Sequence record: PZ496580.1
Source: a phage
Strand: one strand, 5' to 3'
Length of the DNA: 64,000 nt
Below are positions 46,736 through 51,054 of the stretch, piece by piece (positions within the stretch are counted from its first letter, which is position 1; each line of letters begins with the position of its first letter). The translations under genes and the position numbers were made by a program. The notes beneath the pieces were generated by a model that did no database searches, was not told the origin of the DNA, and was given only the letters and a program-made list of their open reading frames with translations.

Positions 46736-46954
46736 TTATTTATATCGCTTTCTCTCGCGACGTTTTTGATCTTCTTCCTTGATAGAGTTAAATGCATCAA
46801 AAAGACACATGACACTGATAATAAACATAACCGTATTTTCTACGATATCCCACGGCTTCGCATCAGTACAGATCCCCCAAACGGTAAGAAATGCAAATAA
46901 GGCAGAAGAGATCACAAGCATGATACTTGCTAAGATATAAAAAGTCATTTTCAT
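46736..46954 (-). CDS. small membrane protein with basic C-terminus
   Basis: 72 aa; ends EEDQKRRERKRYK. Confidence 0.5.
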   Translation of the reverse strand: MKMTFYILASIMLVISSALFAFLTVWGICTDAKPWDIVENTVMFIISVMCLFDAFNSIKEEDQKRRERKRYK

Positions 46955-47145
46955 GGTTTTACCTCAATTCTTCGATATTCATCACACATCCACGCAGTAA
47001 GCAAGAATCCCAACACATAAGCAACAAAATACGTTAATGCTTCTTCTGGTTCGGTGCTATGCGCCATCATCAGACCAGCGAGAAAGGTCTTAACAATTAC
47101 ATTTAAAATAATTAGCCACGCAAATAATTTCATCGTTTGCCCCAT
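46951..47145 (-). CDS. small membrane protein
   Basis: 64-aa hydrophobic ORF. Confidence 0.5.
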   Translation of the reverse strand: MGQTMKLFAWLIILNVIVKTFLAGLMMAHSTEPEEALTYFVAYVLGFLLTAWMCDEYRRIEVKP

Positions 47146-47369
47146 TTCGGACGAGTCTTTTCAAACTTATACATTCCGTAACAATCTCGAATCATCCACG
47201 TAACAAGAGCACCAGTCAACACAGACAATACACAGAAGAAGTAAAACGGTCCGGTTGCATTATCAACATGAGCAAGCCATGTAAAGAAAACACATGCAAG
47301 GAATGTAAAGAACATCATAAAGCACAAGAAAGCGAAATATTTTATACTACTCATAGCGCCACCATACAA
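47130..47369 (-). CDS. small membrane protein
   Basis: 79-aa hydrophobic ORF. Confidence 0.5.
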   Translation of the reverse strand: MYGGAMSSIKYFAFLCFMMFFTFLACVFFTWLAHVDNATGPFYFFCVLSVLTGALVTWMIRDCYGMYKFEKTRPKWGKR

Positions 47370-47457
47370 CAGATCATAAGAAACCCCAACGCAATAAGAA
47401 TTGCATCAAATTTAGTGAACTCCGGTCCACCTATCAACATCATTCGTTCCTGTTCAG

Positions 47458-47703
47458 TCATAGATCACAGATCCATCTTAAAGCACCACATAAAGCGATC
47501 AGAAGACTAGGTATAAACGAGACTAAAACAAGATTACAAAAATCATCTAAGGTAACGCCGGAATAGCTACCAACTGTAACAACACCGATCATCAGACACA
47601 GAAAGAAAACAAATGCAATCAGAAACAAAGTATTGCTAAACAGTTTAGTGATCATTAGACACCCCACGACGGTCAATTTCAAAAACTTTCTTATCACCAA
47701 CAA
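47458..47703 (-). CDS. small membrane protein
   Basis: 81-aa hydrophobic ORF. Confidence 0.45.
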   Translation of the reverse strand: MLVIRKFLKLTVVGCLMITKLFSNTLFLIAFVFFLCLMIGVVTVGSYSGVTLDDFCNLVLVSFIPSLLIALCGALRWICDL

Positions 47704-47848
47704 AGCAGGTCACTACCGCCTCGTTGACTTCCGCAAATTGTTGTGTTACCCACTTAAGGTCAGATCGAAACAATGTTCTATTAATAACAAAACTTTTGCC
47801 GCTCTTATCCTTACCCATAAATTTTGCTTTAACCATATCCAATTCCAT
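47645..47848 (-). CDS. hypothetical protein
   Basis: 67-aa ORF. Confidence 0.4.
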   Translation of the reverse strand: MELDMVKAKFMGKDKSGKSFVINRTLFRSDLKWVTQQFAEVNEAVVTCFVGDKKVFEIDRRGVSNDH

Positions 47849-48082: not shown

Positions 48083-48460
48083 TTAAGAATATTTTACTTC
48101 GTCTACAATGTCTTTCATGACATTGATTTCCATTCCGGTCAGAACACGTTGGAACATGTGCTGAACATACGCTTTCAGGTATTCATTTGACGGCTTGCTA
48201 TCAAAAGTCTTTTTAGTGTAGTAGTCATCACCGAACGCTACTGTAATTACATTTTCGTCGTCATTCCAAGCGATATAAGCAAATTTGCCGTTATCCCAGA
48301 AGCGAGCACTAATTGCTACTTTTGTTGAATCGAATCCTACTTCGCTGTGAGATTCAAGAACTACTTGCGTGCCAGTTTCTTTATGAATGTAGTAGCGGGA
48401 TACTAAGTCAAAGTTACGGGTGTAGTGACATTCGAATTTATCTTTAAACATCATCATCAT
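48083..48460 (-). CDS. hypothetical protein
   Basis: start at ATG run (MMMM) at 48460 after AGGAGAATCAAA; upstream part of the track ORF is promoter leader. Confidence 0.55.
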   Translation of the reverse strand: MMMMFKDKFECHYTRNFDLVSRYYIHKETGTQVVLESHSEVGFDSTKVAISARFWDNGKFAYIAWNDDENVITVAFGDDYYTKKTFDSKPSNEYLKAYVQHMFQRVLTGMEINVMKDIVDEVKYS

Positions 48461-48497: not shown

Positions 48498-48526
48498 ATT
48501 ATGCTATAGTCGTTTATGGTTGTCAA
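48498..48526 (-). promoter_or_regulatory. early promoter (TTGACA-17-CATAAT) with conserved leader
   Basis: minus strand TTGACAaccataaacgactatagCATAATgcacacatcgaaacgaaacacac. Confidence 0.6.
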
Positions 48527-48530
48527 CACA

Positions 48531-48564
48531 TAAAAACAAAAAAACCCCGAAAAATTTTCGGGGT
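48531..48564 (-). terminator. intrinsic terminator after 57B-like gene
   Basis: minus strand ccccgaaaatttttcgggg followed by tttttttgttttt. Confidence 0.7.
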
Positions 48565-48570
48565 ATAGAA

Positions 48571-49041
48571 TTACAGTTTGGTCGTCCACTCCAGATCTAG
48601 ATCTTCGACATACTCATGAGATCGGACAATCTCTAAATCGAACTCTAGGTCAGTGCCAAATTTACGCGCACCAACATCATAAGAAAGCGTGATATGCGGT
48701 ACATATTCAGGATAATCCCACGTCGCACCTAAAGCAGTTCCGATATCGTGTCTGAATTGCATGTAGTCGCTTTCAAATGCCAGCACCAGTGCATTAGTAC
48801 CGGATTGAGTTTCAAACACTTTCAGGTGGCATAGAGAGCCTAAAAACTTTTCACCCTCTTCTGGGATAAACGGAACATAGACACGAGAATATAAGATAGT
48901 GCTATGCAGTTTATCACGAGGAACGGCATTAGGCAGATCGTAGAACTCCTGCAATTTTTCAATGCGGTCTAGTGTATCCTCAGTGAATTTAACCGCCGCA
49001 TATGTACCTTTAACGGATTCTCGAAACGGGGTCATAATCAA
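48571..49041 (-). CDS. 57B: 2H phosphoesterase (T4 57B / Acb1-like cyclic-oligonucleotide phosphodiesterase candidate)
   Basis: two H-x-T/S-x motifs (HSTIL, HITLS) typical of 2H/LigT fold; position immediately before 57A-1-3 as in T4. Confidence 0.65.
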   Translation of the reverse strand: MIMTPFRESVKGTYAAVKFTEDTLDRIEKLQEFYDLPNAVPRDKLHSTILYSRVYVPFIPEEGEKFLGSLCHLKVFETQSGTNALVLAFESDYMQFRHDIGTALGATWDYPEYVPHITLSYDVGARKFGTDLEFDLEIVRSHEYVEDLDLEWTTKL

Positions 49042-49295
49042 GCCTCCGTGATCAGTTCTACTTCCTCTTCTGCTTCTTCGTCTTTAGGGAGAAGTGCTTT
49101 TACTTCTTCGACGATAGCATCAAGGGAAACAGTGCCATTTTCATCTGGCTGAATACCCAGAATGCGTACCAGTTCCATCAATACACGCTCACGATCTTTC
49201 AGTTGGCCTTCTAAGAATGCGGCCTTTTCTTGAGTGTCAAACAGACGGACTTTCAGGACATTAATCATTTGTTCATGCTGATTGGACATATTCAC
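49038..49295 (-). CDS. 57A: small acidic coiled-coil protein at the 57A position (tail-fibre chaperone candidate)
   Basis: 85 aa, helical/acidic; assignment by synteny. Confidence 0.45.
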   Translation of the reverse strand: MNMSNQHEQMINVLKVRLFDTQEKAAFLEGQLKDRERVLMELVRILGIQPDENGTVSLDAIVEEVKALLPKDEEAEEEVELITEA

Positions 49296-49321: not shown

Positions 49322-49978
49322 TTAAATGTTCGCGAGAATCGCGCTTTCAAATTCTTCTAATGTACCATTATTTATGATAATGGTTTCACCGTCAATAGGC
49401 ACAATTCCTTTTTCGGTGGAGTGAGTCGATACAATACCAGTATCACGCTGAATATGCAGCACCTTAGCACCCATAGAACGCATGAGAGCAATTTCAATAG
49501 GCTGACGCACATCAACCACTACAAAATACCCTTCTTCATTTTTTCGCTTCATAAACTCATTCACGAAGAGATTACACCAATAAAGCGGATTGATCAAGTT
49601 AACCATTATATCAGTACCGAGAGTGGTTAACATGAGACGAATGGACCAGACGTTATTATGTTTTTCGCCGATCTCATTAACGACCTTGTAAATCTCAGCC
49701 AGACGATCACAAGTAAAGGAACTACCGCCATACTTCGAATCTAGCATAAGCAGACACTGAATAAACCACTTATGCGCGGTATAGGTATCAATACCTAGAT
49801 CGGCTTCTCTGTCACGCCCTAACCCGTCAAAGTCAAGATAAGTCAGACCTAAGTCTGGTTGACATTCGCATAAGATTTCTTTGATCGGTGCTGCCAGTTG
49901 ATAACTATGTCCATCAATGATTAACGCGGCAGTGTCTTTTCCTACTCGCTTTTTACCACAAAGTGCAATCAATTTCAT
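49322..49978 (-). CDS. 1: deoxynucleoside monophosphate kinase gp1
   Basis: MKLIALCGKKRVGKDT P-loop; colinear with T4 gp1 (LMRSMGAKVLHIQR, TH.TE.G). Confidence 0.85.
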   Translation of the reverse strand: MKLIALCGKKRVGKDTAALIIDGHSYQLAAPIKEILCECQPDLGLTYLDFDGLGRDREADLGIDTYTAHKWFIQCLLMLDSKYGGSSFTCDRLAEIYKVVNEIGEKHNNVWSIRLMLTTLGTDIMVNLINPLYWCNLFVNEFMKRKNEEGYFVVVDVRQPIEIALMRSMGAKVLHIQRDTGIVSTHSTEKGIVPIDGETIIINNGTLEEFESAILANI

Positions 49979-49993
49979 TATATAAGCCTCTTA

Positions 49994-50584
49994 TTACTTT
50001 CTAAAAGCAGGGTGCATAGCTTTAATACCTTCCACCCGCTGACGATCCGCCGCCTGAATTGCAGGGCGAGGAACGATCAGTTGACCATCACGTTCAATGC
50101 TCATTGTTTTAAATGGAAGAATTGCAGTACATACCAGAGATTCATGCATATCATCGGTGTATGTTAACTCAAGTTCCCCCAATTGTGAACACCAACAACC
50201 ATAAAAGTTAAAAGTGCATACAATGTTACGGCGTTCATTGTCCATCATGTGAACTTGAACGGCTTCCGGCATTGAATCCTTCCACGCTGTGGAGTTACCG
50301 TTATTGTAGTCTACTATAGAAAGCATCCATGTGTAAAGGTTTAGATAGCTTTCTAGATGTTCATCGACAATAAACCGAACTACCAACGGGTCAAACTCCA
50401 CATGACTAGACGGATAATCAGCAACCGCCAAACCATATTGACCAGCAACTTGCTTAGTCGGTGGAATGGTTATAGCAGGAAGTGTAACACCTTGAGCATT
50501 TAAAGTAAAGCCTTTTGTTAGTTGACCATCTGGAATGGCAATCTGCCAGTTGCTAGGGTTAGCATAGTTAAAGAGATTGGACAT
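49994..50584 (-). CDS. 3: putative tail completion/sheath stabiliser protein at the gene 3 position
   Basis: 196-aa ORF upstream of gene 1; assignment by synteny; TAATAAATA late-promoter-like element ~25 nt upstream. Confidence 0.4.
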   Translation of the reverse strand: MSNLFNYANPSNWQIAIPDGQLTKGFTLNAQGVTLPAITIPPTKQVAGQYGLAVADYPSSHVEFDPLVVRFIVDEHLESYLNLYTWMLSIVDYNNGNSTAWKDSMPEAVQVHMMDNERRNIVCTFNFYGCWCSQLGELELTYTDDMHESLVCTAILPFKTMSIERDGQLIVPRPAIQAADRQRVEGIKAMHPAFRK

Positions 50585-50773: not shown

Positions 50774-51028
50774 ATGACAGAAGACATTTTGTTAAAACTC
50801 TATGATCGTTTGGATAACGAATTAGCAACATTGCGGGGTGAAGTTCTCTATTTGTCTAAATGCAATACAGATCTGCTTAAGCAGATTGCAGAAAGGGATG
50901 ACCAAATAAAATCCCTTTCAGGTGCATTACGTGATCGCGACAAGGCATTAGAGATTTTACAGCGTGTTACCAATAAGGAAGAATTAAAAGACTTCTTACA
51001 TGGTTATGCTCATGCTATCGATCTATAA
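50774..51028 (+). CDS. small coiled-coil protein (plus strand) in the gene 3 / gene 2 intergenic gap
   Basis: 84 aa with GAGGA RBS; heptad-like LxxL pattern. Confidence 0.5.
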   Translation: MTEDILLKLYDRLDNELATLRGEVLYLSKCNTDLLKQIAERDDQIKSLSGALRDRDKALEILQRVTNKEELKDFLHGYAHAIDL

Positions 51029-51054
51029 TAAAAAAGCCCGTCAATGACGGGCTT
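51027..51054 (-). terminator. intrinsic terminator after gene 2 (hairpin shared with plus-strand ORF end)
   Basis: perfect 7-bp stem gcccgtc-aat-gacgggc with T-run on minus strand. Confidence 0.6.

Follow-up and report, generated by a model that had tools for sequence, protein, structure and literature searches.

The anti-CBASS protein Acb1, the product of gene 57B in phage T4, is a small metal-independent 2H phosphoesterase that blocks the activation of CBASS effectors (PMC9117128). Cleavage of 3′3′-cGAMP and cAAA was shown for the T4 enzyme and for all nine of the further homologues that were cloned, and 273 phage copies of Acb1 were reported, along with a list of nine catalytic or nucleotide-contacting residues in T4 numbering (PMC9117128). 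The same study included a lysate infected with phage G2494, labelled as RB49 type, in a screen of 57 phages (PMC9117128). The T4 protein is 152 amino acids (aa) long (Hobbs et al. 2022, PMC9117128), and its gene follows genes 3, 1, and 57A, overlapping the stop region of 57A. Right after it come an early promoter, PE2, and a stem-loop, and then ipI, an anti-restriction gene; in T4 and its close relatives, a tRNA cluster lies just beyond ipI and 57B.

Three other described enzymes serve as points of comparison. The Acb1 of Erwinia phage FBB1, from another phage lineage, has been solved as the apo form (7T26) and with 3′3′-cGAMP (7T27). Cellular 2H phosphoesterases such as Escherichia coli LigT (PDB 5LDI and others) share the superfamily fold and the two HxT/S motifs, but they are about 170-185 aa long and are without the C-terminal lid and stacking residues of Acb1. 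The 2H PDE-9 of Burkholderia phage BCSR5 (PDB 9Q2G/9Q2Y) is a viral 2H phosphodiesterase of the same structural group and also degrades 3′3′-cGAMP, but its lid is N-terminal and it is poor on 2′3′-c-di-AMP.

The window analyzed here is a stretch of 64,000 nucleotides (nt) of phage DNA (sequence record PZ496580.1), assigned by DNA identity to Krischvirus as an RB49-type coliphage. Across the 10 kb around 57B, its identity is 96-97% with Escherichia phages vB_EcoM_G2494 and RB49 and at least 95.5% with the remaining listed Krischvirus (Straboviridae) records. The protein of interest is 100% identical in amino acid sequence to the gene 57B product of RB49 (NP_891697.1) and to the proteins of Skers and SAP, and it matches that of G2494 at 153 of 154 residues. 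At the nucleotide level, window and RB49 genes differ at six positions, all synonymous, and copies at least 99% identical were found in 56 phage records. Because the differences from RB49 are synonymous only and near-identical copies are so many, the pattern indicates a functional gene under purifying selection and excludes one that has decayed or lost its activity. The flanks, terminator, and promoter-like site are likewise the same in RB49 and the other Krischvirus copies, and nothing of substance separates these from the window copy except that their database names are out of date. The protein is thus already catalogued and belongs to an anti-CBASS family that has been described and characterized structurally, and its biology is not new. 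A candidate Acb1-like gene was what the earlier note had proposed; the identity holds, and the word candidate understated it, as the identical protein has been deposited as RB49 57B.

The minus-strand open reading frame (ORF) at 48571..49041 was borne out as real, with one correction at its start. The TTG at 49041, from which the frame had been read, is only 1 nt past a GGAGG (49047-49043) and overlaps the 57A stop, and it was rejected in favor of the ATG at 49035, which is 7 nt past the GGAGG and follows the stop codon of 57A (TGA, 49040-49038) by 2 nt. A 465-nt coding sequence from this ATG is annotated in RB49, Skers, and G2494. Given this spacing and these three annotations, ATG 49035 is the likely start, and the product would be 154 aa rather than 156 (Table 1). 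The position of the GGAGG inside the end of 57A suggests translational coupling of 57B to 57A.

Table 1. Features of the acb1 (gene 57B) locus, with residues of the T4 and window proteins paired by alignment
Feature	Position	Strand	T4 57B residues	Window protein residues	Support and remarks
Intrinsic-terminator-like hairpin ACCCCGAAA-ATT-TTTCGGGGT with T-run TTTTTTTGTTT	48534..48564	-			hairpin 48564..48544
Sigma-70-type promoter-like TTGACA-17-CATAAT	48498..48526	-			11/12 consensus; placed to serve the 125-aa ORF 48086-48460
acb1 / gene 57B coding sequence	48571..49035	-			154 aa plus stop TAA 48573-48571; 2H phosphoesterase, Acb1 family
C-terminal segment with adenine-contacting Glu and lid Trp	48574..48606	-		E144-L154, lid Trp W150	alignment to T4
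Second catalytic motif (HxT)	48682..48696	-	H113/T115	H114-I-T116-L-S	aligns with T4
First catalytic motif (HxT)	48892..48906	-	H44/T46	H44-S-T46-I-L	aligns with T4
HxT/HxT tetrad			H44, T46, H113, T115	H44, T46, H114, T116	
Base-stacking aromatics			Y12, W74, F107, W147	Y12, F74, Y108, W150	
Adenine N6-contacting Glu			E141	E144	
Shine-Dalgarno GGAGG	49043..49047	-			7 nt before ATG 49035; within the 57A 3′ end
Gene 57A, tail-fiber assembly chaperone	49038..49295	-			Pfam GP57, E 3e-06, 27.3 bits (cut-off 27); Skers and RB49 annotate it
Gene 1, dNMP kinase	49322..49978	-			Pfam DNMK, E 5.9e-68; synteny anchor
Gene 3, tail completion / sheath stabilizer	49994..50584	-			gp19-like, E 1.9e-07; RB49 annotation; synteny anchor

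Both 2H motifs claimed for this frame can be read in its translation; a pair of motifs of four residues each could be a chance occurrence, and it is the whole-protein Pfam match that carries the identification. The protein matches PF23474, "Anti-CBASS protein Acb1," with an E-value of 1.5e-51 and 174.4 bits, above the curated threshold of 27, and residues 9-152 align with profile positions 1-143 of 144. Searched against the PDB with phmmer, it matched Acb1 alone (7T26/7T27, E 1.8e-43), and its alignment with T4 57B (NP_049750.1) is full-length, with 47% identity (E 3e-47). A search of 5.8 billion proteins yielded 64 homologues, each of them with PF23474, and matches occur in 1,476 phage records, the majority from T4-like phages of Escherichia, Klebsiella, Shigella, Acinetobacter, Aeromonas, and Vibrio. 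An NCBIfam scan of the protein gave no family, a result of no weight against membership because that library is without an Acb1 model. The similarity to Acb1 that had been claimed is therefore strong, and the ORF is very probably the Krischvirus orthologue of T4 57B, with an activity against CBASS signals that would follow by homology, predicted fold, and analogy to the characterized enzymes.

The predicted structure points the same way. An AlphaFold2 model built on a 62-sequence alignment has a mean pLDDT of 91.6, and Foldseek ranked 7T26 and 7T27 first among PDB entries, with the predicted model superposing at a TM-score of 0.86 (query) or 0.97 (target), an rmsd of 0.9 Å over 138 columns, and 52% identity (52-54% across the comparisons), making FBB1 Acb1 the closest solved structure. 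Next came the Burkholderia phage 2H phosphodiesterase at a TM-score of about 0.7, followed at some distance by cellular 2H enzymes, E. coli LigT among them, with TM-scores of only about 0.5, rmsd of 6-7 Å, and 11-12% identity. Model confidence is low solely at the N-terminus and at the C-terminal lid, where it falls below 50 at residues 151-154; low confidence there fits a lid that orders only upon ligand binding. Relative to T4 57B, the window protein has two residues inserted in the 123-133 loop and a single additional one at 80-81, and FBB1 Acb1 is two residues shorter than the window protein in the loop that precedes the last strand.

The nucleotide-handling residues of Acb1 are likewise retained. 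With T4 numbering verified by translating T4 from position 1377, all nine of the listed residues are represented in the window protein, two of them as aromatic-for-aromatic swaps: T4 W74 is replaced by phenylalanine and T4 F107 by tyrosine, and the resulting F74 and Y108 are identical to the residues of the crystallized FBB1 enzyme. Among 62 homologues, H44, T46, H114, and T116 are invariant, and conservation is at least 90% for Y12 and E144. The window protein also has the lid segment, L148-L154 with W150, as the counterpart of T4 lid residues 145-152. Shared with T4 57B are thus the Pfam family, a similar length, the HxT/HxT tetrad, the adenine-reading glutamate, and the lid tryptophan. The earlier note had named a lack of Acb1 similarity, or of the catalytic histidines on structural alignment, as grounds for dropping the assignment; every such check was run and came out in favor of the assignment: the model superposes on the FBB1 crystal structure, and both histidines align with those of T4 and FBB1.

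What was shown for this locus is homology, a predicted fold, the conservation of key residues, synteny, and purifying selection, and the substrates, chemistry, and anti-CBASS effect described next are those inferred by analogy with the T4 and FBB1 enzymes. Because the catalytic and binding apparatus is wholly conserved, the same activity as T4 Acb1 is the best-supported reading. Cyclic di- and trinucleotide signals of CBASS, among them 3′3′-cGAMP, cUA, cAAA, and cAAG, would be bound in a U-shaped pocket, their bases stacked by Y12, F74, Y108, and W150 and the adenine N6 read by E144, with the closing C-terminal lid covering the ligand. The tetrad H44/T46/H114/T116 would then promote attack of the adenosine 2′-OH on the 3′-5′ bond, giving a 2′,3′-cyclic phosphate intermediate and finally a linear product unable to activate CBASS effectors, so that the infected cell would be spared abortive death. 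The G2494 phage of the published screen carries a near-identical 57B (153/154 aa, 99%). A literature search found no publication joining RB49 to Acb1 or Krischvirus to CBASS.

At 47% identity to the T4 enzyme and 52-54% to that of FBB1, the substrate range could differ in detail. A larger shift, by which this Acb1-family enzyme would spare 2′3′-c-di-AMP (the Panoptes decoy) as the phage 2H PDE-9 does, or would prefer signals outside CBASS, is highly improbable. In its favor are the low identity to T4 Acb1, the sharp separation of the Krischvirus clade (56 records at 99% identity or more, then almost none until below 60%), and the finding that related viral 2H phosphodiesterases differ in their substrates, as determined by the enzyme core (2025 preprint, 10.1101/2025.08.21.671373). 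Yet every listed contact residue is either conserved or equal to that of the FBB1 enzyme, which was crystallized with 3′3′-cGAMP; all ten tested Acb1 homologues cleaved cGAMP and cAAA (PMC9117128); and PDE-9 is merely 16-18% identical to the window protein, with its lid at the N-terminus rather than the C-terminus. The least probable reading is that of a generic LigT-like 2′-5′ RNA ligase, or a 2′,3′-cyclic phosphodiesterase acting on RNA ends in RNA repair or tRNA processing instead of degrading signals: PHROG 755 is named RNA ligase, as are RB49 RefSeq and many other records, a weak match to Pfam 2_5_RNA_ligase2 (PF13563, E 0.0011) was found, and the fold search returned LigT structures, but that match is partial (residues 70-126) and reaches 19.4 bits, under the cut-off of 27, against 174 bits for Acb1, the LigT superposition is poor beside the Acb1 one (TM-scores of 0.86-0.97), the Acb1-specific stacking aromatics, adenine-reading glutamate, and lid tryptophan are all retained, and the label is older than the 2022 characterization of T4 57B. 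The ligase reading is a matter of legacy names alone, and it fails on the Pfam cut-off as well as on the comparison of structures.

The surroundings of this Acb1 gene follow those of T4 on one side and depart from them on the other. On the minus strand, the genes run 4, 2, 3, 1, 57A, 57B, which matches T4 and agrees with the 57B position that had been claimed, and as in T4 the gene is placed after 3-1-57A and overlaps the 57A stop region. The T4 arrangement of stem-loop and promoter right after 57B also has its likeness here, in line with the terminator and promoter cassette of the earlier note. The hairpin begins seven bases past the 57B stop and has a 9-bp stem with five GC pairs, a 3-nt loop, and a folding energy of -12.8 kcal/mol (z -2.7 against shuffles); the G2494 record independently annotates the same terminator (ARNOLD, -12.3). 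Behind the terminator lies the promoter-like site, and past this the 125-aa ORF begins with its ATG, preceded by a ribosome-binding site, AGGAG. RB49 and Skers have the identical hairpin and the identical two promoter hexamers, with differences limited to a few substitutions in flanking bases and a longer T-run in Skers. Unlike T4, the window has the 125-aa orphan in place of ipI as the downstream neighbor, and the tRNA cluster is absent; ARAGORN found no tRNA genes in the window (1-64000).

Because no strong terminator was found from the end of gene 2, which has one at 51054..51034, to that of 57B, 57B would close a putative 3-1-57A-57B unit, delimited by consensus-type signals. Within this unit, 57B is probably translationally coupled to 57A, and the next gene appears to have a separate promoter-like site. 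The T4 late-promoter motif TATAAATA does not occur within the 3-1-57A-57B unit, and the window total of four lies below the 6.25 expected by chance, so no statement on late expression is made. Two upstream sigma-70-like sites, at 49395..49367 and 50005..49977, match 10 of 12 consensus positions, and as such matches are common there (17 found against 10 expected), they are not claimed as promoters.

The 125-aa ORF (48086-48460, minus strand) lies directly past the Acb1 terminator, in the T4 ipI slot, with its own promoter-like site and ribosome-binding site. It belongs to phrog_15253, of unknown function, and is represented by only three clusters among 5.8 billion proteins and by one representative among 1.84 billion, its occurrence being confined to this group of phages. 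Its AlphaFold2 model is poor (pLDDT 66), and a BFVD fold search returned its own RB49 orthologue alone, with no informative fold match. Assignment to Pfam Gp30.7 was rejected as sub-threshold (17.3 bits against 27). From its position, this orphan is a possible lineage-specific anti-defense gene.

About 0.7 kb downstream of Acb1 lies a homolog of Dmd (47648-47848, minus strand; Pfam Dmd, 8e-15; phrog_2102, 1.8e-30), the discriminator of mRNA degradation, an antitoxin against RnlA/LsoA; RB49 annotates it as dmd, for which T4 61.5 is a synonym. Dmd and Acb1 together make up a small anti-defense neighborhood. Downstream of dmd, at 46739-47703 on the minus strand, is a run of ORFs of 64-81 aa that are hydrophobic and membrane-like; the three that were scanned belong to PHROGs 15168, 15717, and 17225, all of unknown function, and their RB49 counterparts are annotated as hypothetical. 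The Krischvirus Acb1 clade is more than 99% conserved inside and less than 60% identical to nearly all other copies, and one could picture its substrate range as retuned, for example to spare the 2′3′-c-di-AMP decoy, and the gene as forming, with the 125-aa orphan and Dmd, a lineage-specific anti-defense islet that holds one uncharacterized inhibitor; this combination is unlikely, and an orthologue of T4 Acb1 with the activity of T4 Acb1 is the reading retained.

Several other small genes of the window were recorded. Searches by tblastn with T4 vs.3, vs.4, and vs.5 found no homolog of Acb2 (T4 vs.4, a cyclic-nucleotide sponge) in the 64,000 nt (best E 1.7), and Acb1 is the sole recognizable anti-CBASS gene within the window. 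Just past regB, where T4 has vs.3, vs.4 (Acb2), and vs.5, there are three small tandem ORFs on the minus strand (39822-40157, 40221-40478, and 40463-40654) that are mutual paralogues with 36-42% identity; they share an ITPGKxY...GYIKDD...C-x-x-L...W pattern and match no Pfam family. A 232-aa protein at 40679-41374 (minus strand), the RB49 nrdC.11 "nucleotidyltransferase," matches Pfam RlaP (E 3.4e-14), a DNA polymerase beta family of the RNA-repair pathway. Genes 3 and 2 are separated by a gap in which an 84-aa ORF (50774-51028, plus strand) lies on the strand opposite to all of its neighbors and adjoins the terminator-like hairpin of gene 2 (51054-51034); RB49 (RB49p130) and G2494 conserve this ORF, and its family is phrog_17832, of unknown function.

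The wide distribution of Acb1 among T4-like phages was already known, and the useful outcome for this gene is a corrected name and a corrected start codon: RB49 RefSeq and many Krischvirus and other GenBank records still read "RNA ligase" or "hypothetical," and the proper name is anti-CBASS protein Acb1. RB49-type coliphages would be expected to resist CBASS systems with adenine-containing signals, which may matter for phage therapy and for host-range prediction, and at high Acb1 expression decoy-nucleotide systems, for example Panoptes, may be able to detect them (PMC12657218).
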